Shown here: piece after piece, positions 6,926 through 29,855 of the stretch
How positions within the stretch are numbered: position 1 is the stretch's first letter
Layout: every line of letters begins with the position of its first letter
Source: Candidatus Saccharimonadota bacterium
Lineage (GTDB): Bacteria > Patescibacteriota > Gracilibacteria > UBA4473
DNA length: 32,000 nucleotides
Direction of reading: 5' to 3'
NCBI GenBank assembly: GCA_020632335.1
Contig: JACKFV010000001.1
Span: 150,001 to 182,000, forward strand
The notes under the pieces: generated by a model
Told to the model about the DNA's origin: nothing
What the model saw: the letters and a program-made list of their open reading frames with translations, nothing else
The model's database searches: none
Program-made: the position numbers and the translations under genes

Positions 6926-6956
6926 ATTGTGCCAGGATCCCCTGGCGTGGTGTTTC

Positions 6957-7434
6957 TTAGGAATGAGGTTCTGTCTTATTGTACCACTTTTCCCATTTCT
7001 TCTTAGCTTCTTCTTTTCTTATGCCTTTTTCTTTTTCTATTTTGTCGATCTCTCTAAAATGTGGGCCCTTGTACAACGCATAGATGGGTGGTTCATTAAG
7101 CGTAAATAGCGGGAGGCAACACACATGGACTAGAAAAAATGCGATCCCCTGGAGAGTCCCCGGAGGGCATTCACCTACTAGATTCCATTTGTATCCCTCT
7201 TTTAACGCTGTGGTCATATCCCCCCCCATATGTTTCATCCCCAAAAACTTCAGTAAATCCTTTTTCGGGGGTGTAGCTATAGATACTAACGGATTTGATA
7301 TGATCCATCTGTAATTCATTCTTATTAAGGAGATCCCTTAAGAGGAATTCCGAAAGATTTGATTCCATCAATCGAACTTTACTGGGGTCAATTTTGAATT
7401 TCTTTACTATGTCTTTCCATAGCTTTTCTAACAT
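6957..7434 (-). pseudogene. Hypothetical gene in a low-GC islet, split by a frameshift at a G8 (C8 on plus strand) homopolymer
   Basis: ORFs 7171-7536(-) and 6957-7319(-) overlap and switch frame exactly at 7220-7227. Removing one G joins ...FGDETYGG to DMTTALKEGYKWN..., giving one ORF of about 158 aa from ATG 7434. I recognise no family. Confidence 0.5.
7220..7227. repeat. C8/G8 homopolymer tract at the frameshift point
   Basis: Read directly: tggtcatatc cccccccata. Confidence 0.95.
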
Positions 7435-7759
7435 TGTTACTGTATACACTTTTTTTAAATTTTTGCCAATTACCCACCCACCACAACGGGGAGCGTGTAG
7501 CCAGCGGTGAAATAATAAAATTAATTTAAACCTCACGGCGTCTCAAGACGTTTCCTAAGAACACCGTGCGGTCCCACGCGTTGCCGTCAAGCAACCATGA
7601 AACCACTGGTGTTCTCTCTCGGTATGTCAAACATCTCTCTCATCACCACATAAAAACATAACAGCAGCACTTGTCAATATGTTTTGTAGATAAATAGAAC
7701 CTAGCAGAGCTCTGCCGTGTCTTTCCCTTGGCATGTATATCACTGGCAGAGCAGGCTCG

Positions 7760-10495: not shown

Positions 10496-11012
10496 CACGC
10501 TCGTAGAGAGCTACAATGCGGCTTTTGGCGCTCCGCCGTATAGGGAGCCCAAGTCTCGGGAGTACCTCCAGCAGCAGTTTGGCCGGAGCTTCCTCACGGA
10601 GGAAGGGCAGGCCGGGGGCGCGTTCATCGTGGCGTGGAACGCAGACGCGCTCTATGCCGTGGGGGCTGCCCAGGCCTATGACGCGGCCAGCTATGGCATC
10701 TTCGCTCCGGCGGCTACGGAGGCCTTCCCGCAGTATGAGCGGCCCATGGCCTACCTAGCCAACCTCTTCCTCCACCCCGCATGGCGACGCCGTGGCATTG
10801 CCAGCGCGCTGGTGCAGGAGCGAGAGCAGCTTCTCCGGCGGCATGGCTACCAGAGCATCGTAGGGCGGACGCTCGCGGTGGGGCCACAGCGGCGCTTCCA
10901 CCAAGAGATGGGGTACGAGTGGAGCGAGAAGCTCTACTTCTTCCCCGGGTCTGAGCACCCCAAGGTACTCTTTGGCAAGGTACTCTCGCCCCGCAAGAGC
11001 ACGAGCAGCTAA
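10443..11012 (+). CDS. GNAT family N-acetyltransferase (189 aa)
   Basis: Acetyl-CoA binding motif A is present (LFLHPAWRRRGIASALVQEREQLLRRHGY). The ATG at 10443 overlaps the upstream gene by 53 nt. Confidence 0.75.
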   Translation: MIQYNIVESLQQLTPFFDTLVESYNAAFGAPPYREPKSREYLQQQFGRSFLTEEGQAGGAFIVAWNADALYAVGAAQAYDAASYGIFAPAATEAFPQYERPMAYLANLFLHPAWRRRGIASALVQEREQLLRRHGYQSIVGRTLAVGPQRRFHQEMGYEWSEKLYFFPGSEHPKVLFGKVLSPRKSTSS

Positions 11013-11102
11013 GTATTTTCTACTCTTTTTCTCAGCAGTATGCCCATGGTGTACTGCTTTTTTCTGCTGGTATTCTCCAGAAGATCGCTCTATACTGGTG
11101 GT

Positions 11103-12983
11103 ATGCGACGTCTTCTCCTTCTCCTACTCGGCGTGGGGTTCCTGCTACCGCTCCTCCCCAGTACAGCCGGGGCGCAGTACGCCAGCCGCTCCACCCCCTG
11201 GACCTGCTATAAAGACGGCAAACAAGACGAAACTGCCGAGAAAAACCTCCAGAATGCCATAGAGGATTTTGACAAAGTAGAGCAGGAGAGGCAAAACCAG
11301 GACAAAGACTACCAGAAGAAAGACGGCTGGGCCACCGTGCCCTACCAGGCGCCCTATGCCAATAGCTGCTTTCAGGTGGTGTGCTATGACAAGAATGGCA
11401 AAATAGACACCAGTGCGTCACAGGGTATTAAGAACCAGATCATCAGTATCCTCCCCTACGACCCGGTGCATAACCAGTGTATGGCGCTCTATGACCTCAT
11501 GGAGCAGGTCAACCAGTGCGTGAAAAACGGGAGTGACACCGCGCAGAAGCGGATAAACGAGATCGGGAATGAGAAGCGTGAGCTCCAAAAGGAGTACAAC
11601 CAGAACCCCGATATGGAGAACTACCGCCAGCACCAGAAGACCGCAAAGCTCATAAACAGCACCGCCGGGAAGGTCACCCTCGGGCTGGTGTGTGTACCAG
11701 AGTACGCCATGGACATCCAGTTTGATAGTGACTGCGTGTTGAAGGACCCGGTACAAATGAAACGGGTGAAGAACTGGGGCAACTGTAGTCCCACCGTCAA
11801 GAGTGGCCCGCCAAGTGCAGTCCATGCCGGGTGCCCCACGGGGGAGCTCGAAGAAGCGCAGCAAACCGCGCTCAATAACTTCCTCTCTAGCCATGGTCTG
11901 GGAGCGCTTACCTGTGCTAGCAAGACTGATCTAGAGAAGGCCTTTGAGGCCGAACAAGCGTACCAACAGGACATGTGTACCCTCAATAAAGAGATGAACG
12001 ACCAGCAGGACAAGCACGACAATGCCGAGAAGGGCACCGATGTCATTGGGGATCTGGTGTCGATCTGCTACCAGACGAATAGAGAGTTTGCCGAGGGCCA
12101 TGCCGAGAAGTGTAATGAGCTCTTAAAGATCCCTCTCGGGGAGGCGGGGGAGAAGCAGCAGCAGTACGACGCAGTCAAAAAGGAGCGCAACCAGCTTATT
12201 AAAGACATCGACGACTACCTGCGCAAGATACAGGCAGACTTTGGGGATCTGGGCAAGCACAGCATCGGCACCGGTTATGAGCAGAACGGCACCCAGCACT
12301 GCTATGAGATACGCATCCCCGGGCGTAGACCCAACAAGGAAGGCACCCTGACCATACGCTATGACAAGCTCGTCTACTGCGAACCTTTCAATCCGCCAAC
12401 CCCAGACCCCAAAAAAAGCACCTACTGGGATGATAACGGTAACCAACAGCAGGGAACGTATGGGGGCCCACTAGTGGATTTCTGCCGTGGGGTGACATCA
12501 CAGTCGACACCGATATGTAATCGGCAAGAGGTACTCGATGAGATCCGCAAGGCCTATGAAGGAGCCAATGGTATCATCGGGAAGGAGAAGCAGCTGGACG
12601 AGATCGGCAATGAGCTGGAAAAGCTTGACGGGGACTCGCTGCGGATAGCCAACATGTGCCCACTGCCCAGTGTACCGCCATGGGTCAGCCACGCGGATAT
12701 CCTCCCCGGCCCACCCAGAGCCAATAACGACCGCGGCATCCACTATGTGCTACAGCTGCTGTTGCCCTCCATTGCTAATGTCCTCCTGGTCTTCATGTGG
12801 GGAGGGGTGGTGCTGGTTATTATTCTGGCCGGCATTTTGCTGCTCTTCTCTGGTACCCCTGCTAGAGAGGGCCTGGTCCAAACCAGTAAAAATATGATAT
12901 ATTGGGCGATTCTGGGCAGTATCATTGCCACCATGGGCTATACGATCGTGAAATTCGTCATTGGTATTAACTTCCTCCAGTAA
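11103..12983 (+). CDS. Secreted Cys-rich protein (626 aa) ending in a TrbC/VirB2-like two-TM hairpin
   Basis: Signal peptide MRRLLLLLLGVGFLLPLLPSTAGA-Q. The ectodomain is about 540 aa with about 20 Cys and coiled-coil-like charged stretches. The C-terminus has TM1 (VLLVFMWGGVVLVIILAGILLLF), a short loop and TM2 (IYWAILGSIIATMGYTIVKFVIG). Confidence 0.6.
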   Translation: MRRLLLLLLGVGFLLPLLPSTAGAQYASRSTPWTCYKDGKQDETAEKNLQNAIEDFDKVEQERQNQDKDYQKKDGWATVPYQAPYANSCFQVVCYDKNGKIDTSASQGIKNQIISILPYDPVHNQCMALYDLMEQVNQCVKNGSDTAQKRINEIGNEKRELQKEYNQNPDMENYRQHQKTAKLINSTAGKVTLGLVCVPEYAMDIQFDSDCVLKDPVQMKRVKNWGNCSPTVKSGPPSAVHAGCPTGELEEAQQTALNNFLSSHGLGALTCASKTDLEKAFEAEQAYQQDMCTLNKEMNDQQDKHDNAEKGTDVIGDLVSICYQTNREFAEGHAEKCNELLKIPLGEAGEKQQQYDAVKKERNQLIKDIDDYLRKIQADFGDLGKHSIGTGYEQNGTQHCYEIRIPGRRPNKEGTLTIRYDKLVYCEPFNPPTPDPKKSTYWDDNGNQQQGTYGGPLVDFCRGVTSQSTPICNRQEVLDEIRKAYEGANGIIGKEKQLDEIGNELEKLDGDSLRIANMCPLPSVPPWVSHADILPGPPRANNDRGIHYVLQLLLPSIANVLLVFMWGGVVLVIILAGILLLFSGTPAREGLVQTSKNMIYWAILGSIIATMGYTIVKFVIGINFLQ

Positions 12984-13537
12984 TGCGCGCTCTTGGTCTG
13001 CTTGGTCTCTCGCTCCTTGTGCTGTGGCTCCCCACGCACCATGCTGGAGCGCAAAATGAGATCTACAACGAAACCTCACTCACCCGGCAGCTGGACCGTG
13101 ATGGCGATGGTACCCTCGACGAAAACCGAGGCCTGGACCCCCGCACGCTCGACGAGATATGGTTTCCCTCATGGCAGTCGGACATCCCGCGGAGCACCGT
13201 GGGCACTGGCGATGCTGTGGTGATAGACCCCTGTAATAATATGACGGGGAGCGGCCTCTCTGGGGGGAATCAATTTGTCTGTGGGGTCATAGGCAAGAAC
13301 TTTGACGGCATGCTGGTGATGAATTTTTTCAACCGATTCGCCGACCTCCTCCTTATGTTTCTGGTGCCTCTGTTACTCTTTTTTGTCATCCAGTCTGGGG
13401 TGCGGCTTATCACCGTAGAGGAACCCACAGAAAGGGCTCGTACCCGCAAAGCACTCATACGAGGCATCATAGGCCTGCTGATAACCGTCGTTGCCTACTC
13501 TGTAGTGAAGACTCTCTACTTCTTCCTGACACAATAA
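12983..13537 (+). CDS. TrbC/VirB2-like pilin-topology protein (184 aa)
   Basis: The ATG overlaps the previous stop (TAATG). Signal peptide ends ...PTHHAGA-Q. A DRDGDGTLDE loop is present. The C-terminal hairpin is LLLMFLVPLLLFFVI - basic loop (ERARTRKALIR) - GIIGLLITVVAYSVV. Confidence 0.6.
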   Translation: MRALGLLGLSLLVLWLPTHHAGAQNEIYNETSLTRQLDRDGDGTLDENRGLDPRTLDEIWFPSWQSDIPRSTVGTGDAVVIDPCNNMTGSGLSGGNQFVCGVIGKNFDGMLVMNFFNRFADLLLMFLVPLLLFFVIQSGVRLITVEEPTERARTRKALIRGIIGLLITVVAYSVVKTLYFFLTQ

Positions 13538-13543
13538 GTACTC

Positions 13544-14083
13544 ATGAATACTTTTATTACTCGTACATATAGACTCGGTTTACTCTCGCTCTGCCTGCTG
13601 AGTGGGAGCGTACTGGCGCAGGTATCTCCAGAGAATTCCTTTCCCGGGGAGGATAAGGGCACCCCCGGCTATAGCCTGGACGAGGGCTTGAGCCGCATCC
13701 TGCCCGAGGGGGCTAGTAACATCCGCCCGGCCTACCTGGTGGGCGCGGGTAAAGTAGCCCGGCCCATGCGCGCAGACGTCGCGGAGATCACTAACCAGAT
13801 ACAAAAGCTCACCAATGGTCTCACGCTGGGGGCTGCCACCATCGCGGTGGTGTTCATTGTCTTCTATGGGGTGCAGATAGCGCTGGGCAGTGGGGGTAAT
13901 GACACCGAAGCACAGAAGCACCTGCAGAAGCTCCTCCTGGCGGTGGCGGGGCTCGTGCTCATCATCTTCGCGTATATCATCGTGCGGACCATTGTGGCCA
14001 TCACCTACAGCGGCGAGGGCCTGCAGGGCGAGATAAACCAGGGGAACTTCAACGCGCCGCTACAAGACGCGGAGCTCCAGTAG
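13544..14083 (+). CDS. TrbC/VirB2-like pilin-topology protein (179 aa)
   Basis: Lies 6 nt after the previous stop. Signal peptide ends ...LLSGSVLA-Q. The hairpin is LGAATIAVVFIVFYGVQIAL - loop (GSGGNDTEAQKHLQK) - LLLAVAGLVLIIFAYIIV. Confidence 0.6.
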   Translation: MNTFITRTYRLGLLSLCLLSGSVLAQVSPENSFPGEDKGTPGYSLDEGLSRILPEGASNIRPAYLVGAGKVARPMRADVAEITNQIQKLTNGLTLGAATIAVVFIVFYGVQIALGSGGNDTEAQKHLQKLLLAVAGLVLIIFAYIIVRTIVAITYSGEGLQGEINQGNFNAPLQDAELQ

Positions 14084-14162
14084 TAGTACTTTTCACTAAG
14101 TAGCACGCCGCAGCAAGCCACTCTGGCAGACAATAGCGGGCAAGTATTGGTATGATGAGCGT

Positions 14163-16496
14163 ATGTATCGCCTCCTGCTCATCACGCTTCTGTTTCCCTC
14201 TCTGGCCGCGGCGCAGTCGGTGCTGGTGGAGTCCCCTGGGGTGGTGATTGCCCCACTGGAGATGCTCTGGGATGCGCCCCCCAGCAGTACAGCACTCCCC
14301 GTACGGCTGCAGTTCTCTACGCCTCTCAGCCTGGGGAGTAGTGTGCACTTCACGCTATCAGACAGCCACGGCGCCAGCATATTGGAGGAAACAACGCCCG
14401 TGCAAGACAGCGGCAATAACACCCTGGGGAGTGACGGCCGCCTGCCCAAGCAGTACGCGCTGCTCATCCCAGCGCCGGCCCTGAGTGGCGACACCTACAC
14501 CCTGCAGGCCACGCTGGAGGACCAAAATGGCCAGCCCCTGGCGCGAGGATCACGTCGCTTCACCATAGACGCGCCCGTACAGCTGCGCTATACCGAGAAC
14601 TTCACCCTGGTGGCCGCGGAGGCCAGCCCCACCGCACAGGTACAGTTCAGCTATCAGAATGACAGCGCTCCGCGCACCATCACACCCGTCATCAGCTGGT
14701 ATCCACGGGAGGGCGGACAGGCCGTGCTCAGCACTCCCCTGCCGGAAAAATCTGTAGCTGCTGATGGCGCTGTGGCTTATCAGGAGGCTATACCCACCCC
14801 CACGGTACCGGGGCACTACTACGCCACTCTGCGGGTAGAGGGCAGCGCTGGCAGTGCCATCACGGGGCAGATACGCGTACCGGTGACCATCCAGGGTGAA
14901 TTTGCGAGCATAGAGAACGTCGCTCACTCCCCCGAGCGCGCCTGGCAGCAGGGTGAGGAAGTGACGCTCACAGCGGATATATACACGCGAGATACCGGGC
15001 TGCCGGTCTTCCTCCGCACCAGCGTAGCCGAGTCCAGCGCCGGTCAGCAGACTCACACCGGGCAGATAGAGGACCGCGTGAGTAGAGGATTTGGCGTACG
15101 AATACCCCTGCAGCAGCGCTACACCGTGCAGGGCCAGCGTACCGAGCAGCTCCAGATGGAGACAGAGGTCATCCGTGACGGGGTGGTTATCGGCAGCCGC
15201 AGCTGGCGAACCCCCGTCTACCCCCAGCCAGAGAGCGCTGTGAACCCCACAGACCCCAGTACTCCAACGCCAGCAACCACCGCCTCCCCCGATAATACCC
15301 CCACGGAGGCCACGCCAGACACCCCAGAAGCCCCCAGTCTGCTCACCCAGCCGGGCTACTGGGCGATGGTGGGGTTGCTGCTGGTGGCTATAGGGCTTGG
15401 CATCTGGTACGCGCTGCGTAAAAAAAAAGTCCTGTCGCTCCTCATAACGATCCTCAGCGCTAGCCTCCTGGGGCAGAGCGCCCACGCGCAAATACCCGAC
15501 ATGACCCCCTACGCGTGGACATTTGAGACGCAGGTGAGCGAGACCTACCTCAACCCCAGCGATCCCTTTTTCGCGGAGGCGAGGCTGCAGGTGACTGCCC
15601 TCAATATGATGAACACCAGTCTGGAGTTCTTTGCTGACTATACCCTCATCGGTACGGTGGTGTACTTCACGGCGGCGCCGGGGGCTCCCCTCGTGCAGGA
15701 GTCCCTCCTCATAGACCCGATGGACGAGAACCGCTTTGCCATGAGCTTTAGCATCCCTCCCAGTACGGCCGGCATGCTGAGCGACGGCAGCTATACGCTC
15801 TATCTGCAGCTGGATATGGACGTACCCGGCACGGGCCTGCGGAGCTACGGGCTGACCATCAGCCCCTACCACCTGGATACCACCCCCCCCACGGTGCAGT
15901 ACCAGTACACCGACCAGGCTATGAAAGATGCCTATGGCCCCAGCGCCAGCACCCCCCAGGCCCCTCCGCTGCCATACACCACCGCCAACCCCATTGGCAT
16001 AGAGCGGCTCTGCACTGACCCCGACAGCAGTGGCGTGATAGGAAGCGGCTGCAGTAGCGTGGGAGGCGAGGAGACCTTCAGCCTGGAGACCGCCTATGCG
16101 CCGATCACCCTGAATGCCTGTGATAGGGTCAATAACTGCCTGTGTAGTGGGAGTGCCTGCTCCCCGAGTGCCGCGGTGTATACGCAGATGTACAGCACCG
16201 GTGGCGAGACGTTGGGGGATTTTAGCCTCTCTACCGAGGGGTATAGCGTGCAGGGCACTCCGGGAGAGACCATCCGCGCGAGTGAGAATATGCCCGTCTC
16301 TATCACTACGGTAGTGAGTGGCGCTGCTCCTGTTCTCCCCGCTGAGCCCTGCGCCCCTGCCGGCATGGTGGAGAACGGTGGCGGTTGCCAGCCGGCGCGT
16401 CTGCACTGCCTGGTGATAGACGAGTCTGGGCCGCTGCCCCTCATCACCCGGGGGACCTATGACCCGTATGACTACCAGGGGTGCACGGGGCTCTAG
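14163..16496 (+). CDS. Large surface protein (777 aa): signal peptide, ectodomain 1, Pro/Thr linker, central TM-RKKK-TM hairpin, Cys-rich ectodomain 2
   Basis: Signal peptide MYRLLLITLLFPSLAAA-Q. A P/T-rich linker (PTDPSTPTPATTASPDNTPTEATPDTPEAP) precedes WAMVGLLLVAIGLGIWYAL-RKKK-VLSLLITILSASLL. The C-terminal region is Cys-rich. The coding strand was chosen over the 618-aa antisense ORF. Confidence 0.7.
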   Translation: MYRLLLITLLFPSLAAAQSVLVESPGVVIAPLEMLWDAPPSSTALPVRLQFSTPLSLGSSVHFTLSDSHGASILEETTPVQDSGNNTLGSDGRLPKQYALLIPAPALSGDTYTLQATLEDQNGQPLARGSRRFTIDAPVQLRYTENFTLVAAEASPTAQVQFSYQNDSAPRTITPVISWYPREGGQAVLSTPLPEKSVAADGAVAYQEAIPTPTVPGHYYATLRVEGSAGSAITGQIRVPVTIQGEFASIENVAHSPERAWQQGEEVTLTADIYTRDTGLPVFLRTSVAESSAGQQTHTGQIEDRVSRGFGVRIPLQQRYTVQGQRTEQLQMETEVIRDGVVIGSRSWRTPVYPQPESAVNPTDPSTPTPATTASPDNTPTEATPDTPEAPSLLTQPGYWAMVGLLLVAIGLGIWYALRKKKVLSLLITILSASLLGQSAHAQIPDMTPYAWTFETQVSETYLNPSDPFFAEARLQVTALNMMNTSLEFFADYTLIGTVVYFTAAPGAPLVQESLLIDPMDENRFAMSFSIPPSTAGMLSDGSYTLYLQLDMDVPGTGLRSYGLTISPYHLDTTPPTVQYQYTDQAMKDAYGPSASTPQAPPLPYTTANPIGIERLCTDPDSSGVIGSGCSSVGGEETFSLETAYAPITLNACDRVNNCLCSGSACSPSAAVYTQMYSTGGETLGDFSLSTEGYSVQGTPGETIRASENMPVSITTVVSGAAPVLPAEPCAPAGMVENGGGCQPARLHCLVIDESGPLPLITRGTYDPYDYQGCTGL
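15420..15428. repeat. A9 homopolymer encoding the KKK of the central hairpin loop
   Basis: Read directly: cgt aaa aaa aaa gtc. Either +1 or -1 slippage reaches a stop within 6-12 codons after the tract. Confidence 0.95.
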
Positions 16497-20783: not shown

Positions 20784-21975
20784 CCTCCCCGGTACTTACC
20801 TGGCTGTCCTCGGCCGCAACGCTGTGCTGAGCCGCACTGAGCTCAGCCGCTCTGCCCGGGAGCTCTGGACTGATGACGAAATAAGCCTGCTCACAGACCT
20901 GCAGGTGGAGAATCCTCGCTCCCTGCCCAAGGCCCCTGCGCAGCTCTTTCTCGACCGCCTGGGCGGCACCCAGCGCCTGGCCGTGCAGCTGCAGGTGGCT
21001 GCTACGGTGGAACAGAGCGTTAGCGTCATTGTGGACCACATAGCGCTGCACTACCCTGAGCTCTTTCCTCAGGGGGATCATAAATACCTCCTGGGCCTCT
21101 CCAGCTATGGCATGGGGAAATCTTTGAACAAAAAATATATGCAATCTATCACCCACGCCCTGGGGGAGCTGCCGCACAAGTGGGTCAATGAGGGCACGCA
21201 AAATATGACCTCGGGACGGTACTTCCACGAGAAAGTGGGACACAAGGGCGCCGAGTACATCGTGCACCAGACGACCGAGGGGATAGGGGTCTACCACACG
21301 GTGGCCAACCAGAACCTGCGCAATTACACCCTGCGTGACCGGCATAAAGAGGGCGACAGCACCATGGGTATGCTGCCGCCCAAGCTGGCGCAGATCCTCA
21401 TAAACCTCGCCCAGCCAGCCCCCGGCACCACCATCGTGGACCCTTTTTGTGGCTCGGGTACTGTGAATACCGAGGCGGCGATCATGGGCTACCCCACCCT
21501 GGGCAGTGACCAGAGCAAAGAGCACATCAAGATGGCGCAGCGCAACTGGAACTTCCTCAGTGAAAAATTTCGCTTCAGTACGGATTCTGGGCGCTTCACC
21601 ATCGCCGATGCCACGGAGCGGGACTACCCCCAGGGCGTCATGGTAACCGAGGGCTGGCTGGGGCAGAACTTCACCAGCAGACCCTCTAAAGACGCCGCAG
21701 CGCGAGAAGCCGAGCAAGTGGTGGCCCTCTGGCAGCGACTCTTCCTCACCCTCGAGAAGGCGCCTATAGACCGCATCGTCTGCTGCTGGCCCGTGTGGTA
21801 CTGCCGTGATGGCGCGGTAAAAGTCGACAAAAAAATACTTGCGCTCGCAAAGCGCTCTCACTACACTCCAGTGGCTTTTTGCGATGGGAGCCTGGGGCAA
21901 GTGTACGCGCGTGAGGGGGCCTATGTAGGGCGATGGGTGCAGGTACTGCAGAGAGCACAGGATCTTCCCGGGTAG
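20767..21975 (+). CDS. SAM-dependent methyltransferase, UPF0020/Trm11-like (putative RNA or DNA N-methylase, 402 aa)
   Basis: Motif I region reads LPPKLAQILINLAQPAPGTTIVDPFCGSGT...GSD. A degenerate motif IV-like VTEGWLGQ follows. The gene overlaps murI by 17 nt, and its stop lies 10 nt inside tRNA-Asn. Confidence 0.65.
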   Translation: MASPSSLPGTYLAVLGRNAVLSRTELSRSARELWTDDEISLLTDLQVENPRSLPKAPAQLFLDRLGGTQRLAVQLQVAATVEQSVSVIVDHIALHYPELFPQGDHKYLLGLSSYGMGKSLNKKYMQSITHALGELPHKWVNEGTQNMTSGRYFHEKVGHKGAEYIVHQTTEGIGVYHTVANQNLRNYTLRDRHKEGDSTMGMLPPKLAQILINLAQPAPGTTIVDPFCGSGTVNTEAAIMGYPTLGSDQSKEHIKMAQRNWNFLSEKFRFSTDSGRFTIADATERDYPQGVMVTEGWLGQNFTSRPSKDAAAREAEQVVALWQRLFLTLEKAPIDRIVCCWPVWYCRDGAVKVDKKILALAKRSHYTPVAFCDGSLGQVYAREGAYVGRWVQVLQRAQDLPG

Positions 21976-22040
21976 CTCAGCGGTAGAGCAATTGGCTGTT
22001 AACCAATTGGTCGTCGGTTCGAATCCGACCCCGGGAGCCA
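21966..22040 (+). tRNA. tRNA-Asn (anticodon GUU), CCA encoded
   Basis: Folds by hand into a cloverleaf: TCCCGGG/CCCGGGA acceptor, GCTC..GAGC D arm, ATTGG-CTGTTAA-CCAAT anticodon arm, GTCGG-TTCGAAT-CCGAC T arm, then G-CCA. Length is 75 nt. Confidence 0.9.
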
Positions 22041-22443
22041 GTAGAATTTATTGACGAAGAATCGCCCTTAGCAGCGGTCTTTTGTTCATGCGGATAATTC
22101 GTCAAAGCTATTATGTGAGAAGGCTCCCGCCATTCTATCGCTACGCCATCTCCGTATAAAAACACGGTTCAGACTCAGGGATAAGAGCCGTTCAATTCTT
22201 GGTTCAGACCTAGCGTCTTTCCTGGAAGGCAACTTCCGCCTCAAGGCGTCAGGTTCTGTGCGCTGCTAGTAGTAGGGAGCATCCCTAAAGGATTGCAGCG
22301 ACTTTAATTACTGTAAAATCCCTCTTAGCTTATCTTGCCCCATACTGTGGGAGTGACTCTCCTGCAACGCCATGGGTGGCATAATGGTGTGGGATTCAGA
22401 CTATTCCCCTTGCGGGATGGACAGCGGTCTGTATGCTCTTGGC

Positions 22444-24093
22444 ATGGAATCACGCGTCTGTAGCGTCTCAGGAGAATCCTTCACGGTGAGCGAGCTGGAG
22501 CGGGGTCTACGGCAGAAGTTTGGGTTGGAGGGGCTCCCCACTACGGCTCCGTGGGTGCGGTTGCGGCACTTGGGGACGTTCTGGCAGCACTTCCATCTGC
22601 ATAAGCGGGGCTGCGATAAGACGGGGCAGAGCATTATTTCGCCTTTTCGTGCAGACTGCCCGTATAAGGTGTATCACAAGGACGTCTGGCTGGAGCATGA
22701 CGACACCGTGGGCGCGGACGTAAATTTTGAGGAGCCAGTGTTTCAGCAGCTCTGGCAGTTTTTTCCGGAGAATCCGATACCAGATAGATTTGGGGCTAAT
22801 ACAGAAAACTGCGAATATACCGATAATATATGGAATGCAAAAAATTGTTATCTTTCCTTTAACGCTGACACCATAGAAAATTGTAGCTATAGTGTGCATC
22901 TCGCATTTAGTCGAGATATATATCATTGTTACTTTGTAGTAAATAGTGAGGTTGTATATGAGTCTGCCAATTGTATGCATGTTTATAATGTCGTGTATTG
23001 CGTACAGAGCCAGCAGTGCCATGACAGCGCCTTTCTCTATGACTGCCGGAACTGTAAAGACTGTATGTTCTGTTGTAACCTCCGGAACAAGCAGTACTGC
23101 TTTGGGAATCAGCAGCTGACGCAGGAGCAGTACGAGCAGAAGAAAGCGGAGTGGGATCTCTCCTCACGAGCGGTGTATGAACGCGCAAAAGGGTTTTTTG
23201 CAGAGATGATGCTGACTATGGCCTGGCATAGAGCGCTAGAACAGCAGCAGACAGAAGACGTACACGGCAACTATATAACGGAGTCTAAGAGTGTAGAGAA
23301 TGGATATTTTGTTGATAAAGTACACACTGCCGTTAACGTCTTGCGAGGGTATGACTTCCAGGATACCCTTGATTGTGTATCTCCAGGATTAAGTCAGCTG
23401 ACTTATCTGTGCTGTTTTGTGGGCTTACAGGCTTATGAAGTTCGCTTTTCTTTCTCGTGCTATGAATCGCATGACCTGGAGTACTGTGCCTTTTGCCAAA
23501 ACTGCGAGAACTGCTTTGGGTGCGTGGGGCTGCGGGGGAAGCAGTACTATATTTTCAATAAACCGTATAGCGAGGAGGCCTACCACGCGCTGAAGGCTCA
23601 GCTGGTGGAGTACATGAAGAGCACGGGCGAATACGGACAATTCTTCCCCGGGTACTTCAGCCCCGCGCCGTATGACGAGACGATCAGCGGGTATTACTGG
23701 CCACTGGATAAGTCGCAGCAGGAGCAGCTGGGGTTCCGCTATGCCGCGCCGGTAGAGAAGCACAATGCCGGCTACCGGAGCGTAGAGGAAATCCCCGATA
23801 CTCCCGAGGGCTGGACAGACAGCATGTACCAGCACGTCTACTGGGACGAGGTAGCTGGCAAGCCTTTCCAGATAACCAAGCAAGACGTCGCCTTTGCCAA
23901 GAAAATGGGCGTCCCACTGCCAGACAGCCACTATATGCGACGCATACAAGAGAACCTCCGCTGGATGCCCTTTGACGGTAAGTTGCGCACCACCACCTGC
24001 GCCCAGAGCGGCAAAACGATAGAGACCAGCTGGCCGGCAGCGTATGACGGGCGCATCTTGAGCGAGGAAGCCTACAACCAGATGGTGGTGTAG
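22444..24093 (+). CDS. Cysteine-ladder protein, paralog A (549 aa), uncharacterised family
   Basis: Homologous over its full length to paralogs B and C. The start at ATG 22444 (MESRVCSVSGESF) was chosen by alignment with MEVRHCSISGKAF. It has two Cys-rich modules, each ending C(K/E)(D/N)C(M/F)(F/G)C..LR.KQY(C/Y).., and a C-terminal FAKKMGVPLP motif. Confidence 0.75.
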   Translation: MESRVCSVSGESFTVSELERGLRQKFGLEGLPTTAPWVRLRHLGTFWQHFHLHKRGCDKTGQSIISPFRADCPYKVYHKDVWLEHDDTVGADVNFEEPVFQQLWQFFPENPIPDRFGANTENCEYTDNIWNAKNCYLSFNADTIENCSYSVHLAFSRDIYHCYFVVNSEVVYESANCMHVYNVVYCVQSQQCHDSAFLYDCRNCKDCMFCCNLRNKQYCFGNQQLTQEQYEQKKAEWDLSSRAVYERAKGFFAEMMLTMAWHRALEQQQTEDVHGNYITESKSVENGYFVDKVHTAVNVLRGYDFQDTLDCVSPGLSQLTYLCCFVGLQAYEVRFSFSCYESHDLEYCAFCQNCENCFGCVGLRGKQYYIFNKPYSEEAYHALKAQLVEYMKSTGEYGQFFPGYFSPAPYDETISGYYWPLDKSQQEQLGFRYAAPVEKHNAGYRSVEEIPDTPEGWTDSMYQHVYWDEVAGKPFQITKQDVAFAKKMGVPLPDSHYMRRIQENLRWMPFDGKLRTTTCAQSGKTIETSWPAAYDGRILSEEAYNQMVV

Positions 24094-24680
24094 TGCTCTG
24101 GGACTGCACCAGGAGCGGTCTGTGGGGGATTACCTCCTAGAATACGAGGGCCTGGTAGCACGTCTCACAGAGGATTTGCTCGGGTCTGTCGGGGGCGTAA
24201 GTGGTGGAGATAGGGGCCCCACACTGGCCGCACTCCCGGTCATACAGCCGCCGAGGATTCCGCAGTGCCATGCGTTCTTTATGCCGTTGGTCCGGGTGTT
24301 TGCGCGGGATGGGCAGCCCCATTTTTTTGTAGAACTGGAGTTCTGCCGGCTGTATGCGGTAGTTTTTTCCGGTGACCTCGCAGGCCAGTATCTCCTTCGT
24401 GATGCTCTCAGGCACGTCCGCTATGGCCTCGGGGATCACGTAGGTCTGCGGCTGGTAGTCTTTTTTGTCCTCCTCGCGCCAGGTGTAGCCCCGTGCCAGA
24501 GCCTCTTCCCGCGTGAGCGGATAGTACTCCTGCGCGATGGTTTCGTTGTAGGCAAAGGGGCTCATCCCGGGCGGGAAGAACTCGCCCCACTCGCCGGTGC
24601 GCTTCATGTGCGCTATTATCTGGTCTCGTAGCGTGTAGTATTCTTCTTTGCTGTACTGCTTATTCAGGATGCAGTACTGT
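24061..24680. repeat. Outer inverted repeat, left arm (about 620 bp)
   Basis: Its reverse complement matches 29200-29819 with no indels (p+q=53880). Positions 24133-24631 are identical to 29249-29747 in my base-by-base comparison. The arm covers the 3-prime third of paralog B, the intergenic spacer and the last 33 nt of paralog A. Confidence 0.9.
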
Positions 24681-25801
24681 GCTTTATTGAGGCCATAACA
24701 ACCGAATGCATGTTCGGTCCCTCTGAGACAAAATTGGGAATACCATACATTTGAAGAGCCATCGTACAGTTGTGCACAGAACGCAGTATCAGCAGTATTG
24801 AGTCCTATACATACTCCTTCATAGCAGTTTTGTATTCCCATACCGCCGATATTAATATCCATACAATTGTAGTTTTCTCCGTCTCCTGCAAAGAGGTCAG
24901 CGCAGTAGGTAAGATTGTCTGCTCTGTGACAGTTATAGCAGTGTGAAAGATCCCGAGAATAAGAAAGCATATCCCCCGTGCAGTTTTCACATTGTATTTG
25001 TCGCGTACACTTATAAGAGAGATTTTGCTTGAACGTAGTGAAGAATTGTGCTAGCTGAGGGAGCGTATGAGTAGCTAATAGAACTTTCAATTTCTGTTCA
25101 TATACTTCTTTTGTGAGTTGTTCGTTATTAAAACAATATTTCTTATTTCGTAGGTTACTACAGCCAAAGCAATCACGGCAACCTATACAATCTGTGCAAA
25201 AATAACAGGTATTACAATTGTCAGAGTGTAGGGTATACACACATGTATGGCACTGTGTACAGTCAATACATTCATAACACAACTCACAGTTTCTCGTATC
25301 TTGCACATCTACAGAATCAAAACAATGGAAGACATTATTCCCATAGAGACACTTTTCATTGTAATCAGCACAGGTAATGAGATAACAATCTTTCATATAC
25401 CCGCAGTTATTGCAGTAGTCACAGTTTTCTAGTGTGTCTGCCACCACTTCTCTCATAATGTGGGGGACACGTTTCTCGAGCGACGCAAATTGCTCAAAAA
25501 ATGGCACGTTAAAGTCATATGCTTGACAATAATCTCGTGCGTCCCACGCATCACTATACCAGTATTTCGGTTCATAAAGTGTGTAGCCCTTATCTTCTGG
25601 GAACATACTCAGTCCTCGTTGTTTCGTTATGTTACATTCTGCCCAATAGAGCTTTCTCTCATTTCTATACGTCAGTCTTCTTCGGGCCCGCTCCTCCGGG
25701 CACAGGGTGGGCAGTGGCACGCCCATTTTCTCGTAGAACTGTATGTCTTGGTCTGTGATAGTAAATGCTTTGCCGGAGATGGAGCAGTGGCGTACTTCCA
25801 T
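24137..25801 (-). CDS. Cysteine-ladder protein, paralog B (554 aa), uncharacterised family
   Basis: ATG ORF with about 43 Cys by my count. An N-terminal CSISGKAFTITDQDIQFYEKMGVPLPTLCPEER motif and a related C-terminal CEVTGKNYRIQPAELQFYKKMGLPIP...RECGQCG...CETC motif flank two Cys modules. It lies 36 nt downstream of the ATPase on the same strand. Confidence 0.8.
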   Translation of the reverse strand: MEVRHCSISGKAFTITDQDIQFYEKMGVPLPTLCPEERARRRLTYRNERKLYWAECNITKQRGLSMFPEDKGYTLYEPKYWYSDAWDARDYCQAYDFNVPFFEQFASLEKRVPHIMREVVADTLENCDYCNNCGYMKDCYLITCADYNEKCLYGNNVFHCFDSVDVQDTRNCELCYECIDCTQCHTCVYTLHSDNCNTCYFCTDCIGCRDCFGCSNLRNKKYCFNNEQLTKEVYEQKLKVLLATHTLPQLAQFFTTFKQNLSYKCTRQIQCENCTGDMLSYSRDLSHCYNCHRADNLTYCADLFAGDGENYNCMDINIGGMGIQNCYEGVCIGLNTADTAFCAQLYDGSSNVWYSQFCLRGTEHAFGCYGLNKAQYCILNKQYSKEEYYTLRDQIIAHMKRTGEWGEFFPPGMSPFAYNETIAQEYYPLTREEALARGYTWREEDKKDYQPQTYVIPEAIADVPESITKEILACEVTGKNYRIQPAELQFYKKMGLPIPRKHPDQRHKERMALRNPRRLYDRECGQCGAPISTTYAPDRPEQILCETCYQALVF

Positions 25802-25802
25802 A
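25686..25802. repeat. Inner inverted repeat, left arm (117 bp)
   Basis: Its reverse complement matches 28081-28197 with one mismatch (G versus A in gcgtRccact). It starts 1 nt upstream of the paralog B ATG and covers codons 1-39. Confidence 0.9.
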
Positions 25803-25837
25803 CTCTGAATGTACAGGACTTACGAGAAGACACAACC

Positions 25838-28027
25838 CTAAATAATCGGCTCGTGGAAGTTCTCGTCCTGCTGCTCTAGGCTGCCGTCTTCCCAGGCTTT
25901 TATCTGTGCTTCGGCGTCGCGTTTGGGCATTGCGTAGGTCTTGCGGCTGTGCTCTCGTATCTCTTTGGCGCAGTTCTTCTCGGGGTAATGTATGGTGAGC
26001 GTCCGCCCACTGAAGGCCTCTTTGAGGTCGCCTTCTATGCTCATTTTGGTGTAGAAGTCTCGTACCCCCAGGTTGATAATGTCCCGCGCGGTGAACTTGG
26101 GCTGCAGCTCCTTCTCGAGAATCTGCGCGTCGTCGCCCCCTACCCGGAAGGTAATCATAGACCCCACATTCCCAAACACCGTCTTGAGGATCTGCGGGGT
26201 GAGCTGCCCCAGGAACTGGTGCGCTATGGTCAGGCACAGCCGGTACTTACGCGCTTCGCTCATGATCTCATCGAAGGTATCAGTGGCAAAGTTCTGGAAC
26301 TCATCCACATAGAAGTAAAAGTCTCTCCGGTTTTCTTCCAGGGTGTCGGCGCGTTCCATGGCGGCTTGGTATATTTTGGTCACGATAATGGCGCCCAGCA
26401 GCTGCGCATTTTCTTCCCCGAGGATCCCCTTACTGACCTTCACCAGCAGTATCTTCTGCCCGTCCATTACCTCCCGTATGTTGAATTTATTATGCGGCTG
26501 GCCCACAATATTCCGTATCATATTCGAGGCCAAGAACTGCCCTACTTTATTGAGGAGTGGTGTGATGGCCTGGTTATCGAATTTCTCACTCCAGCCGGCA
26601 AATTCATTCACCCAGAAGCTCTTGACCGTGTCGTCTTGTATATTCCGCACGATGTCCTGGCGGTAGTTTTTATCCGTCAGCATGCGCATGATGCTCAGCA
26701 CAGTGGTGCCGTCACTGTCCAGCAGCGCCAGCGTTGTCATCCGCAGCACGTGCTCCAGGCGGTCATTCCACCCCGCGCCAAAGAGTTTTTCGAATATCTC
26801 GAGGAAGCCGGTGGTGACCCGTATCTTCAGCTCTGGCTTGACATTCTCTATCGGGTTGAACGCTATCGGGAAGGCAATATCTGTGGGGTCTATCAGCACT
26901 ACGTCTTTCTGGCGGTGCTCGGGCACCATCCGGAGGACATTATCTACCAAGTCCCCATGGGGGTCCAGCACGCCTACGCCTTTGCCCGCCTGCAGGTCTG
27001 CCTGTATCAGCAGCTCAATGAGCTTACTCTTCCCGCTCCCGCTCTTCCCCACCACGTACAGGTGTCGCCGACGGTCACTACGCTTGATACCAAATGGCAC
27101 GCTACTCCCGTGGAAGTTCGTCTTCCCGAAGAAACTAATGTCACTGTCGTGGGTGTCTGTAGGGAGGCCTGGGGGGGCTTCTCCTTTGCGGCTGATGACC
27201 TGGATAATATTGCTCACCTCTCGTTCATTGGGCAGGTGGTAGAGGGTGGCTATCTCATCAGACGATAGCAGCAGACTGGGGTGGCTGCGCTTAGCAAAAG
27301 CCTGCACTGCCGCTGCTCCTTTATACTTTTGTGCTGGTTTTATGCTATTGAGGTCAAGCGTGTTGTAGTTCTTCAGTGTTGAGAGCATAGCGCTCAGTCG
27401 GGTAGCCGCTCCCCCCATAGTAGGGCCAAAGGCCGCCACCCGCAGCGACACCCTATACAGCCGACTCTGGAGCTTACTCGTGATGCTCTGGCTGAAGAGA
27501 TTTCGGTCTTGCTTCTTGAACCAGTACTTTATCCGGAACTTATGCCGGAAGGTATCCAGCATGCGCACAATACCCATCTTCCAGTGGAAGAACCCCGAGT
27601 CTGGCACCGGCGTACAGACCAGCTGGAACCACACGCCCTCCTCTGGTTTGGTCTTGCTCATCACACTCAGCAGCCCCGCCAGGCTATCCCCGTCAAAGTT
27701 CTGGTGGGTGTTGATGGGGTAAATGGCATTCCGCGTGAGGGTTACATCGGCTCCGGCTATGGGCATCCCCTGTGGCAAGAGTGTGGTATAGTCAGGTATC
27801 TGGAGGATTTCCGCTGCGGGAAACACCGCGTAGAACTGCCCCATGAGTACCTGGCACGTGCCGGGGTCCGCCGTGAAGACAAACCCCAGATTACCACTCA
27901 TCGTCACGATTTCCAGGCTGAATGTCTGGCCCACAAGGGTCTCGTGCAACTGGTTAAGGATCTCTGCAAAGGCAACCTCCTTCTTCTGATTATTGGGGGG
28001 CACTTGTATGAGGTAGGTCTCGCGCAT
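25838..28027 (-). CDS. Soluble VirD4/TraD/TraG-superfamily (type IV coupling-protein-like) P-loop ATPase with a ~320-aa N-terminal domain of unknown function (729 aa)
   Basis: Walker A is VVGKSGSGKS (about residues 325-334), Walker B is FYFYVDEFQNF, followed by LTIAHQFLGQL, as in TraG/TraD-type NTPases. No TM helix is present. The start at ATG 28027 (MRETYLIQV) was chosen because the upstream 68 codons of the long ORF are just the antisense of the paralog C 5-prime repeat. Confidence 0.7.
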   Translation of the reverse strand: MRETYLIQVPPNNQKKEVAFAEILNQLHETLVGQTFSLEIVTMSGNLGFVFTADPGTCQVLMGQFYAVFPAAEILQIPDYTTLLPQGMPIAGADVTLTRNAIYPINTHQNFDGDSLAGLLSVMSKTKPEEGVWFQLVCTPVPDSGFFHWKMGIVRMLDTFRHKFRIKYWFKKQDRNLFSQSITSKLQSRLYRVSLRVAAFGPTMGGAATRLSAMLSTLKNYNTLDLNSIKPAQKYKGAAAVQAFAKRSHPSLLLSSDEIATLYHLPNEREVSNIIQVISRKGEAPPGLPTDTHDSDISFFGKTNFHGSSVPFGIKRSDRRRHLYVVGKSGSGKSKLIELLIQADLQAGKGVGVLDPHGDLVDNVLRMVPEHRQKDVVLIDPTDIAFPIAFNPIENVKPELKIRVTTGFLEIFEKLFGAGWNDRLEHVLRMTTLALLDSDGTTVLSIMRMLTDKNYRQDIVRNIQDDTVKSFWVNEFAGWSEKFDNQAITPLLNKVGQFLASNMIRNIVGQPHNKFNIREVMDGQKILLVKVSKGILGEENAQLLGAIIVTKIYQAAMERADTLEENRRDFYFYVDEFQNFATDTFDEIMSEARKYRLCLTIAHQFLGQLTPQILKTVFGNVGSMITFRVGGDDAQILEKELQPKFTARDIINLGVRDFYTKMSIEGDLKEAFSGRTLTIHYPEKNCAKEIREHSRKTYAMPKRDAEAQIKAWEDGSLEQQDENFHEPII

Positions 28028-28080
28028 CACTATGAGTATAGAGTTGCTTGCATCATGTGGCAATGCCAGTATGGTCGAAA

Positions 28081-28197
28081 TATGGAAGTACGCCACTGCT
28101 CCATCTCCGGCAAAGCATTTACTATCACAGACCAAGACATACAGTTCTACGAGAAAATGGGCGTACCACTGCCCACCCTGTGCCCGGAGGAGCGGGC
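28081..28197. repeat. Inner inverted repeat, right arm (117 bp)
   Basis: Partner of 25686-25802 (p+q=53883). It starts 1 nt upstream of the paralog C ATG at 28082. Confidence 0.9.
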
Positions 28198-29743
28198 TAT
28201 GAGGAGGATGGTCTGGAGGAATGAACGACACTTATATAAGAGGAAATGCGATGCCACCGGTAAAGATATTCTGTCTGTAATGGCTCCGACTTACCCCGGG
28301 CAAGTGTACACCCCAGATGCCTGGTGGAGCGATGCGTTTGATGCTCGTGAATATGGTCGTGATTATGACAACACACGCCCTTTCTTAGAGCAATTTGCAG
28401 CCCTTAATGTAGCAGTCCCAGCAGTAGGGAGAGCCGTAGTGGCCACTACTCTGGAGAACTCCGAATACTGTAATGGCTGTGATCGTCTTAAGGACTGCTA
28501 TCTTCTCTTTGAAGCGAATAATGATGAGAAATGTCTCTATGGGAGAGGTGTCTACTACAGCTTTGATACCCTTGACAGTCTACACATAAATCACTGTGAG
28601 GCCTGCTACCAAGTGGTGGACTGTCAGCAGTGTAGCTTCAGCACCTACCTCATGGATGCCACCCAGTGCACGGACTGCCACTACTGCGCCGACTGCATAG
28701 GCTGCTCCCACTGCTTTGGGTGTGTGAATCTCCGCCAAAAGCGCTACTGTTTTAATAACCAACAGTTGACTCCAGAACAGTACACAGAAAAAGTAGCCGA
28801 GTTACGAGCACGCTACACTCCTCATGAACTACACGATTTTTTCTTGGCATTCAGAAAAACCCAACCCGCGCGAGCAAACCACTCTCTCCGTGCAGAAAAT
28901 TCTACCGGAGATTTTCTCTATAACACCCAGAACTGCACCAACTGCTATGACTGCCACGCAAGCCAAGACTGCAGCTATTGCACCAATCTGGCTGAAAAGG
29001 GAACGAATCATACTAACTACGATATTTCCCTCTTTGGGAATGGCACCACCAACTCCTATGAGTGCAATGCTGTAGGAGTTGCTGTAGATAGCCTCTTGTT
29101 CTGTAGTCATTGTATTATCAATAATTATAATCTGGCATACTGTAGCTGGTGCGTCAACGGCACCCACGACTGCTTTGGCTGCGTGGGGCTGAAAAAGCAA
29201 CAGTACTGCATCCTGAATAAGCAGTACAGCAAAGAGGAATACTTCACACTACGAGACCAGATAATAGCGCACATGAAGCGCACCGGCGAGTGGGGCGAGT
29301 TCTTCCCGCCCGGGATGAGCCCCTTTGCCTACAACGAAACCATCGCGCAGGAGTACTATCCGCTCACGCGGGAAGAGGCTCTGGCACGGGGCTACACCTG
29401 GCGCGAGGAGGACAAAAAAGACTACCAGCCGCAGACCTACGTGATCCCCGAGGCCATAGCGGACGTGCCTGAGAGCATCACGAAGGAGATACTGGCCTGC
29501 GAGGTCACCGGAAAAAACTACCGCATACAGCCGGCAGAACTCCAGTTCTACAAAAAAATGGGGCTGCCCATCCCGCGCAAACACCCGGACCAACGGCATA
29601 AAGAACGCATGGCACTGCGGAATCCTCGGCGGCTGTATGACCGGGAGTGCGGCCAGTGTGGGGCCCCTATCTCCACCACTTACGCCCCCGACAGACCCGA
29701 GCAAATCCTCTGTGAGACGTGCTACCAGGCCCTCGTATTCTAG
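28082..29743 (+). CDS. Cysteine-ladder protein, paralog C (553 aa), uncharacterised family
   Basis: The start at ATG 28082 (MEVRHCSISGKAF...) was chosen by identity with paralog B. The first 39 and last ~180 residues are essentially identical to B, and the central ~335 residues are only loosely similar. It is divergent from the ATPase, with a 54-nt spacer. Confidence 0.8.
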   Translation: MEVRHCSISGKAFTITDQDIQFYEKMGVPLPTLCPEERAMRRMVWRNERHLYKRKCDATGKDILSVMAPTYPGQVYTPDAWWSDAFDAREYGRDYDNTRPFLEQFAALNVAVPAVGRAVVATTLENSEYCNGCDRLKDCYLLFEANNDEKCLYGRGVYYSFDTLDSLHINHCEACYQVVDCQQCSFSTYLMDATQCTDCHYCADCIGCSHCFGCVNLRQKRYCFNNQQLTPEQYTEKVAELRARYTPHELHDFFLAFRKTQPARANHSLRAENSTGDFLYNTQNCTNCYDCHASQDCSYCTNLAEKGTNHTNYDISLFGNGTTNSYECNAVGVAVDSLLFCSHCIINNYNLAYCSWCVNGTHDCFGCVGLKKQQYCILNKQYSKEEYFTLRDQIIAHMKRTGEWGEFFPPGMSPFAYNETIAQEYYPLTREEALARGYTWREEDKKDYQPQTYVIPEAIADVPESITKEILACEVTGKNYRIQPAELQFYKKMGLPIPRKHPDQRHKERMALRNPRRLYDRECGQCGAPISTTYAPDRPEQILCETCYQALVF

Positions 29744-29819
29744 GAGGCAATCCTCCGCAGGCTGCTCCTGTAGCAGCTCCAGAGCACTACACCACCATCT
29801 GGTTGTAGGCCTCCTCGCT
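29200..29819. repeat. Outer inverted repeat, right arm (about 620 bp)
   Basis: Partner of 24061-24680. There are three mismatches at 29235, 29244 and 29248, then a 499-bp perfect block, then scattered mismatches from 29748 to 29819. Confidence 0.9.
29787..29819 (-). pseudogene. 33-nt relic of the 3-prime end of a paralog-A-like gene
   Basis: The minus strand reads AGC GAG GAG GCC TAC AAC CAG ATG GTG GTG TAG (SEEAYNQMVV-stop). This is the same peptide and stop as the end of paralog A at 24061-24093. Similarity ends abruptly at 29819. Confidence 0.7.
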
Positions 29820-29855
29820 ATAGACCCTCGATAAAATTCCCGCTATACTAAAGGG

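Follow-up and report, generated by a model that had tools for sequence, protein, structure and literature searches.

The window analysed here is a 32-kb stretch of contig JACKFV010000001.1 (positions 150,001 to 182,000; assembly GCA_020632335.1, Candidatus Saccharimonadota bacterium, GTDB class Gracilibacteria), and the region of interest within it consists of four genes: A, B, an ATPase gene, and C. B and C are anciently diverged, cytoplasmic multi-zinc-ribbon paralogs that belong to a large Patescibacteria family linked to a soluble ATPase. They lie in inverted orientation on either side of the ATPase gene (Table 1), and the identity of their ends, down to synonymous sites, shows that they recombine with each other. 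The pattern is probably, though by no means certainly, the product of recurrent gene conversion between inverted paralogs that is limited to the constant ends of the genes and that followed a lineage-specific rearrangement of the locus.

Shared ends and diverged middles of B and C

The 5′ ends of B and C form the arms of an inner inverted repeat of 117 nt, for which an in-register comparison and a blastn self-comparison agree on 99.1% identity (116/117). The sole mismatch is a synonymous GTG/GTA difference at codon 28 (position 25719 in B and 28164 in C), and the 39 N-terminal residues encoded by the two arms are identical (MEVRHCSISGKAFTITDQDIQFYEKMGVPLPTLCPEERA). At its downstream margin, the identity stops at the wobble base of codon 39, which is GCC in one copy and GCT in the other. 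The shared DNA ends with GAGCGGGC and is followed by a C and then CGAAGAAGACTGACG in B, and by a T and then ATGAGGAGGATGGTC in C; beyond this codon, identity between the two genes falls to 58% and then to 32%. At its upstream margin, the identity runs from position −1, which is a T in both genes, and position −2 differs, as can be seen in the ends of the two spacers before the ATG (...GCCAGTATGGTCGAAAT for the 54-nt spacer on the C side and ...GTACATTCAGAGT for the 36-nt spacer on the B side). A lone match at −1 is at chance level (about 1 in 4), so the inner repeat effectively begins at the start codon. The segment between the inner arms (25803-28080, 2278 nt) contains the ATPase gene and two short spacers only.

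A preliminary description of this DNA gave the same geometry, and its account is confirmed: the repeats extend from −1 through codon 39, the spacers measure 36 and 54 nt, the enclosed segment has the length claimed for it, and all upstream signals of B and C lie inside the bracketed segment, as both 5′ ends point inward. It was also correct that an inversion would alter no protein, because the 39 shared codons translate identically. The same is true of a crossover in the outer arms, where the encoded residues are likewise identical and located at the gene termini. The start of the repeat at exactly −1, which had been presented as a special feature, turns out to be an ordinary one. The 5′ identity starts at the ATG because homology between the paralogs itself starts there, and in one related locus (L001) two tandem paralogs with differing upstream contexts are likewise similar from ATG−1 onward.

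The 3′ ends of B and C likewise form the arms of a longer, outer inverted repeat, which the preliminary description of the inner arms does not mention. Repeat finding delimits it at 639 nt with 97% identity, and blastn at 626 nt with 97.8% identity. Its core of 499 nt (24631-24133 in B and 29249-29747 in C) contains no difference at all, synonymous sites included. Identity is graded at the inner margin of the outer arms, and the 81 nt past the stop codons (29744-29824 on the C side) are 85% identical, with 12 mismatches. In this tail downstream of C, the A/B spacer and the last 12 codons of A recur in antisense and in decayed form; the codons are genuine in A, as LSEEAYNQMVV aligns with LCETCYQALVF of B and C. 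The presence of antisense A codons behind C indicates that a non-reciprocal transfer carried sequence from the A/B junction to the region 3′ of C. The 85% identical flank beside a perfect 499-nt core, in turn, indicates that the two did not arise in one event, and points to one or more recent conversions on top of an earlier transfer.

Between the shared ends, the ~330-codon middles of B and C (codons 40-~372 in B) are ~50% identical in DNA and 42% identical in protein, and neither middle is nearer to the other than to foreign members of the family. The break in identity at codon 39/40 is sharp. The GC content at third codon positions (GC3) is 0.37 in the middle of B (24695-25685), 0.53 in the middle of C, 0.54 in that of A, 0.72-0.78 in the shared termini, and ~0.79 in housekeeping genes. 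Skew at four-fold sites, which could have dated an inversion of the ATPase-B block, follows the strand consistently in none of the genes in the window. Three features by which gene conversion is recognized are present: identical tracts lie beside diverged homologous sequence, the tracts are of more than one age, and one copy is non-reciprocal.

Organization of related loci

The comparative survey covers 163 loci around ATPase homologues, three of them from protein look-ups, 80 from GTDB genomes, and 80 from JGI metagenomes; counts that include the window refer to 164 loci, and family genes were sought within 6-8 kb of the ATPase. A baseline for identity between paralogs is provided by 148 full-length pairs, each from a single locus, in 53 of the related loci. 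Over the first 117 nt, DNA identity in these pairs has a median of 0.62 and a maximum of 0.86, and it is 0.98 between B and C. Over the last 498 nt, the median is 0.61, the maximum 0.90, and the B/C value 1.00. For the middle, the B/C value of 0.58 stands beside a median of 0.57 and a maximum of 0.77. The ends of B and C are an extreme outlier relative to the 148 pairs.

Genes of the Cys-rich family are found near the ATPase in 115 of the 164 loci, with 308 genes in total and up to eight or more per locus. Most are co-directional with the ATPase (94%), and 19 of the 308 (6%) lie on the opposite strand. Among genes directly adjacent to the ATPase, 71 are upstream and co-directional, 16 are downstream and co-directional, 3 are convergent, and 1 is divergent (L090). 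Inverted repeats of at least 60 nt and at least 88% identity around the ATPase occur in the window alone and in none of the 163 related loci. Since no other locus has bracketing inverted repeats, the inverted arrangement of the window is lineage-specific. Among the loci with opposite-strand genes, a low-stringency comparison of L015, L017, L019, and L025 gives at best an inverted repeat between paralogs of 180 nt with 83% identity (L019), and L090, L103, L114, L138, L141, L142, and L151 show no inverted repeat between paralogs of at least 60 nt and at least 78% identity. One of the closest relatives, L005 (ATPase 62% identical), has the gene order Cys-ATPase-Cys-Cys, a plausible ancestral order for the window's arrangement.

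Several tandem arrays elsewhere in the family are homogenized in the same two regions of the genes, in the form of direct repeats. In these arrays, the repeated block joins the final ~270-580 nt of a gene, through a spacer of 1-2 nt, to the initial ~41-48 nt of the gene that follows. Examples are found in L007 (146-776 / 1794-2424, 95% identity) and L043 (4288-4604 / 5979-6295, 99.4% identity), with shorter blocks restricted to 3′ ends in L064, L065, L072, and L059. Tandem junction blocks of this kind are a substrate for unequal crossing-over and array expansion. Homogenized ends are thus a trait of the family; the inverted version is not.

Several repeats in the related loci are of separate interest. 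In L019, from a Gracilibacteria metagenome-assembled genome (OY760935.1), one Cys gene lies upstream of the ATPase and another lies downstream in convergent orientation, and the inverted repeat of this locus (7330-7508 / 10604-10780) falls in the C-terminal parts of the two Cys genes. A 127-nt inverted repeat in L120 (7483-7609 / 10052-10175, 93% identity) was set aside as a candidate, being intergenic and unrelated to family genes; it is AT-rich, begins 24 nt past the ATPase stop codon, and encloses 2.4 kb of unrelated open reading frames (ORFs). L044 and L123, apparently from the same organism, each have a perfect 150-nt direct repeat at a break in the ATPase match (1393-1542/3967-4116 and 1159-1308/3733-3882, respectively), which could be an insertion or an assembly artefact.

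Searches for closer relatives of the locus returned little. The exact sequences of the ATPase, B, and C are absent from 153 billion gene positions, a degenerate pattern representing the common N-terminal peptide at the DNA level had 0 matches in metagenome contigs, and the best relatives of the ATPase in GTDB genomes and JGI metagenomes reach 62-65% identity. For C, the nearest relatives are 53% identical.

Expression signals

All three genes around the two spacers have promoter-like boxes at short distance from their start codons. The ATPase is preceded by TTGCCA (28063-28058), a gap of 17 nt, and TATACT (28040-28035), which ends 7 nt before the ATG and scores 10/12 in a promoter scan. For C, the boxes recognized by eye are TTGCAT (28048-28053) and TATGGT (28070-28075), separated by 16 nt and located 6 nt before the ATG (7/12). 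The boxes of B, also recognized by eye, are TTGTGT (25835-25830) and TACATT (25813-25808), with the same 16-nt gap and 6-nt distance from the ATG; they score 7/12 and lie under the scan threshold. Across the window, a TANNNT hexamer occurs 5-9 nt upstream of 9 of the 20 gene starts, compared with 5.2% of all ATGs (p = 3e-7), and Shine-Dalgarno-like motifs are missing from nearly all genes. Judged from the sequence, these features suggest that leaderless transcripts may be widespread in this organism, and B probably has a leaderless-type start of its own in addition to any read-through from the ATPase gene.

The preliminary description had pointed out that neither spacer has a clear Shine-Dalgarno motif. 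This is accurate for both spacers, but it does not set them apart, since nearly all genes of the window are alike in this respect. All candidate signals of B, C, and the ATPase are confined to the spacers, which belong to the enclosed segment and not to the arms; a crossover in the inner arms would therefore swap them. Such an inversion would exchange two predicted promoters of similar weakness, and its effect would be expected to be quantitative and modest. The further proposal that inversion toggles the partner of the ATPase between B and C loses ground on two counts: B has a candidate start signal of its own, and relatives keep up to eight or more co-directional paralogs with a single ATPase.

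Comparison with known conversion and inversion systems

The tufA and tufB genes of Salmonella and Escherichia coli are inverted duplicates under concerted evolution by gene conversion, with occasional inversion. B and C resemble them in being inverted paralogs that are identical at synonymous sites, with an intervening segment that the same recombination could invert and no dedicated recombinase known to take part. Unlike tufA and tufB, B and C are homogenized at the gene ends only, their ~1-kb middles being ~50% identical, and the intervening segment here is just 2.3 kb long and contains a functionally linked gene.

A second parallel is offered by the hsdS loci of Streptococcus pneumoniae (spnIII/cod/ivr), which also contain inverted paralogs in which conserved segments flank variable domains, with repeats that lie within coding sequence (PMC4948785, PMC6620402, PMC7672463). 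Repeat sizes are similar, at 85 and 333 bp in hsdS and 117 and ~560 bp here, and inversion at the longer hsdS repeats proceeds without the invertase of the locus and without RecA (PMC6620402). In hsdS, inversion generates new chimeric HsdS proteins, and a promoter is present at one of the copies only. In the window, by contrast, the arms lie at the extreme ends of the genes, each gene is complete and has a candidate start signal of its own, and neither B nor C would be altered by a crossover in the inner or the outer arms, so the locus would not act as a coding shufflon of the hsdS type. The encoded proteins are unrelated to HsdS, and, unlike the hsdS loci, the locus has no 15-bp invertase site, and no invertase gene was found among the main ORFs of the window.

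Invertons of the fimS or Bacteroides type share with this locus a segment that is bracketed by inverted repeats and contains promoters, such that its orientation determines which flanking gene is driven. In the window, inverted repeats bracket 25803-28080 (117 nt) and 24695-29185 (639 nt). Known invertons have short repeats (about 10-40 bp), a tyrosine or serine invertase nearby, and an ON/OFF output, whereas here the arms are long and coding, no invertase was found in the 32-kb window, and each orientation would drive both of the flanking genes. In a survey of programmed inversions, recombinase annotations were the most enriched neighbours (PMC9881135). The architecture is also not conserved in the 163 related loci.

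Probable gene conversion and alternative explanations

The most economical history that can be inferred for the locus begins with an ancestral co-directional A-ATPase-B-C array, in which one inversion of the ATPase-B block would have left B and C inverted relative to each other, both 5′ ends directed at the ATPase. Repeated non-reciprocal homologous recombination then probably evened out the 39-codon N-terminal zinc-ribbon motif and the ~185-codon C-terminal domain, the ~330-codon middles presumably being too diverged for conversion. Conversion needs prior similarity, and this agrees with homogenization in just those stretches of the protein that are best conserved. Branch migration or heteroduplex would halt at the ATG, where homology ends. 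On this model, the inner arms would be a by-product of concerted evolution with no dedicated switch, and a rare crossover between the inner or between the outer arms would reverse the DNA that they enclose, swap the promoters, and change which gene receives read-through from the ATPase, as an incidental consequence. Since the arms evidently recombine, 25803-28080 probably inverts now and then at a low level, and so does 24695-29185, by way of the outer arms.

Several considerations weigh against this explanation. In the baseline set, no other full-length pair exceeds 0.86 identity at the 5′ end or 0.90 at the 3′ end, and the outlier status of B and C implies a factor specific to this lineage that sustains frequent recombination at this locus. 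It is mechanistically awkward for conversion tracts to extend right up to the limit of homology, except in company with crossovers, which would imply that inversions do take place. Known inversion shufflons, moreover, have exactly this anatomy, with inverted repeats nested at conserved gene ends on either side of variable domains. Finally, neither a dedicated recombinase nor RecA is needed for inversion at the 85- and 333-bp repeats of spnIII (PMC6620402), and this precedent means that the lack of an invertase does not exclude switching.

These points bear most directly on the possibility that homologous or replication-linked recombination over the 117-bp arms, the 639-bp arms, or both flips the ATPase segment back and forth often enough to be useful. 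Such flipping would exchange the upstream signals of B and C and thereby vary which of the two variable paralogs is produced in larger amount or together with the ATPase. The geometry is right for such a switch and no protein would be altered by it; the candidate promoters all lie in the spacers within the segment, the near-perfect arms imply ongoing recombination between B and C, and inversion independent of recombinase and RecA has the precedent just cited. It is nevertheless unlikely. No recombinase or integrase domain was detected by Pfam and NCBIfam in the main ORFs of the 32-kb window, a search that a distant gene would escape, and the architecture is missing from all related loci surveyed. 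Relatives have many paralogs co-oriented with one ATPase and therefore no exclusive partner for it, and the promoter-like boxes of B and C are equally weak and equally spaced, from which a small effect is predicted. More doubtful still is the wider proposal that, in this Peregrinibacteria-like bacterium of the candidate phyla radiation (CPR), a recombinase-independent flip-flop across coding repeats that conversion keeps perfect exchanges the promoter and read-through setting of B and C and generates population heterogeneity in the variable protein made with the ATPase, with the constant domains serving both as ATPase docking modules and as recombination substrates.

A recent full-length inverted duplication, followed by crossovers in the conserved ends that exchanged the middle of B for DNA of foreign origin or from a distant paralog, would account for the sharp transition at codon 39/40 and for the GC3 of the B middle, which is far below the values for the middles of C and A, the termini, and the housekeeping genes. 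This course of events is nonetheless improbable. No donor was found, the B middle being at most 43% identical to anything in 5.8 billion clusters; the GC3 of the C middle is also atypical, and the two middles are no closer to each other than to foreign members. A single duplication leaves the 85% identical flank beside the 100% identical core unexplained, and end identity between family members (60-86%) is low for the homologous integration of foreign DNA. An origin in assembly, by a chimeric or fold-back join or by an arbitrary choice of orientation at the repeat, has a very low probability. Short reads cannot bridge a perfect repeat of 499 nt, and a short-read assembly may therefore fail to fix which way 24695-29185 points between its flanks; inverted end artefacts do occur in such data (for example, L063 1-140 / 1465-1604, 100% identity). 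The margins of the arms are non-identical, however, the centre consists of 2.3 kb of unique sequence with an intact conserved ATPase gene, and B and C are intact and in frame with the invariant residues of the family; on these grounds an assembly palindrome was rejected. Ordinary read pairs, moreover, can bridge arms of only 117 bp.

The ATPase and the Cys-rich family

The ATPase combines a P-loop domain of the type IV coupling protein (T4CP; VirD4/TraD/TrwB)-HerA kind with an N-terminal domain of ~300 amino acids. It scores above the Pfam cut-offs for TrwB_AAD_bind (29.3 bits, cut-off 20.5), TraG-D_C (22.6, cut-off 22), and DUF87 (40.3, cut-off 23.2), and the Walker A motif GKSGSGKS and a DEFQNF motif are visible. 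Its start codon is backed by alignment with homologues. Homologues with 62% identity carry DUF8128 and T4SS-DNA_transf, and DUF8128 is not mentioned in any paper of the literature searched. Other hallmarks of T4CPs are missing. The protein has no transmembrane segment that could serve as an N-terminal anchor (peak KD19 hydropathy 1.18, below 1.6), its matches to the curated NCBIfam T4CP, CedD, and HerA models are all far under the cut-offs, and a search against PDB sequences gave no match at E <= 0.01. PADLOC returned weak HerA/mad8 P-loop matches for the ATPase and none for A, B, or C, and assignment to a known defence system is unsupported.

A 2025 survey counted 5,713 VirD4-like homologues in Patescibacteria, 148 of them near virB4, and suggested exaptation (PMC12102498). 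The ATPase of the window resembles these homologues in being a VirD4/TraD/TrwB-like P-loop protein encoded in Patescibacteria away from virB4. It differs from that account in lacking a transmembrane segment, in having the ~300-amino-acid N-terminal domain, and in its linkage to Cys-rich arrays, which is undescribed there.

A, B, and C belong to a family of multi-zinc-ribbon proteins of ~550 amino acids, with which they share full-length similarity and linkage to the ATPase. They contain 5-8% cysteine, have no transmembrane segment or signal peptide, and match no Pfam family above cut-off. A search with C gave 7978 matches with E <= 0.001 among 8000 scored candidates. The family has more than 8000 members, and no literature on it was found. 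Among the 120 best listed, coverage of C is at least 98% with one exception (95%), and identity is 42-53%. Where sources are named, they include Gracilibacteria, Peregrinibacteria, Peribacteria, and other Patescibacteria, and the usual labels are "hypothetical" or "zinc-ribbon domain containing protein". A has ~30% amino acid identity to B/C-type members and its best match is 45% identical (L007_729). The Cys-rich proteins described from Peribacteria genomes are of a different class, being large and secreted (PMC4736985).

An AlphaFold (AF2) model of C, built on a 55-sequence alignment, has a pLDDT of 83.7 and a pTM of 0.87. It shows two well-defined domains, an N-terminal one (residues 1-125) and a C-terminal one (residues 380-553), both with pLDDT >90, and a Cys-rich middle that is mostly coil. 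The model has no PDB or BFVD match beyond zinc-ribbon fragments, and the family profile finds a LIM-like zinc-finger fragment only among PDB sequences. Identity to relatives is 61-66% in the C-terminal domain and 40-45% in the middle. The combination of constant ends and a variable middle suggests a shared docking surface together with diversified specificity. The proteins also contain an internal duplication, with one copy of the motif C-x2-SG-x-F-x-IT-x5-FY-x-KMGVP-x-P-x-LCP-x-ER at the N-terminus and another close to the C-terminus (…CEVTGKNYRIQPAELQFYKKMGLPIPRKHPDQRH…); in the L002 array, the duplicated motif corresponds to the two copies per gene of repeat family D6.

Locus layout and surroundings

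Table 1. Features of the A-B-ATPase-C region (positions in the 32-kb window)
Feature	Coordinates	Strand	Description
Gene A	22372..24093	+	Translation of 573 aa, 4.7% Cys; divergent third Cys-rich paralog, convergent with B
Left outer inverted-repeat arm	24056..24694		Last 558 nt of B, 43-nt A/B spacer, and last 38 nt of A
Gene B	24137..25801	-	554-aa multi-zinc-ribbon protein, 7.8% Cys; no transmembrane segment or signal peptide
Left inner inverted-repeat arm	25686..25802		Base −1 to codon 39 of B; 116/117 identical to 28197-28081
ATPase-B spacer	25803..25837	-	36 nt if base 25802 is counted (25802-25837); no Shine-Dalgarno motif
ATPase gene	25838..28027	-	729 aa, TAG stop; sole gene between the inner arms
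ATPase/C divergent spacer	28028..28081		54 nt
Right inner inverted-repeat arm	28081..28197		Base −1 to codon 39 of C
Gene C	28082..29743	+	553-aa multi-zinc-ribbon protein, 6.7% Cys
Right outer inverted-repeat arm	29186..29824		Last 558 nt of C and 81 nt downstream

The A-B-ATPase-C module (22372-29824) begins 330 nt past a tRNA-Asn (region 21966-22371) and has a GC content of 0.47-0.55, compared with 0.58-0.65 in its flanks. Neither an integrase nor a duplicated tRNA end was seen, and an island origin is only hinted at. Rfam matches in the window are limited to two tRNAs. Beside the tRNA-Thr (6726-6802) lies an AT-rich patch (6800-7700, with a GC content of 0.40 at 7001-7500) that contains a 120-aa ORF on the minus strand (6957-7319) without a Pfam or NCBIfam match.

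A cluster resembling a type IV secretion system (T4SS) is located at 11040-16496, 9 kb upstream of the T4CP-like ATPase. It includes two adjoining VirB2/T4SS_pilin-like genes (12983-13537 and 13544-14083), which are flanked by unannotatable membrane proteins of 647 and 777 amino acids. A virB4 gene was not found in the 32-kb window.

Implications

B and C probably present a case of domain-limited concerted evolution in a CPR genome, in which the constant ends are identical and the Cys-rich middles are ~50% diverged. The locus draws attention to a widespread, uncharacterized module of Patescibacteria, consisting of a soluble T4CP-like ATPase and arrays of zinc-ribbon proteins, which is apparently undescribed and occurs in 115 of 164 loci. 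If no second orientation exists, the locus would be a rearranged member of a fast-evolving gene array. If both orientations are real, it would represent the first inversion-type heterogeneity for this module and lineage, achieved without an invertase.

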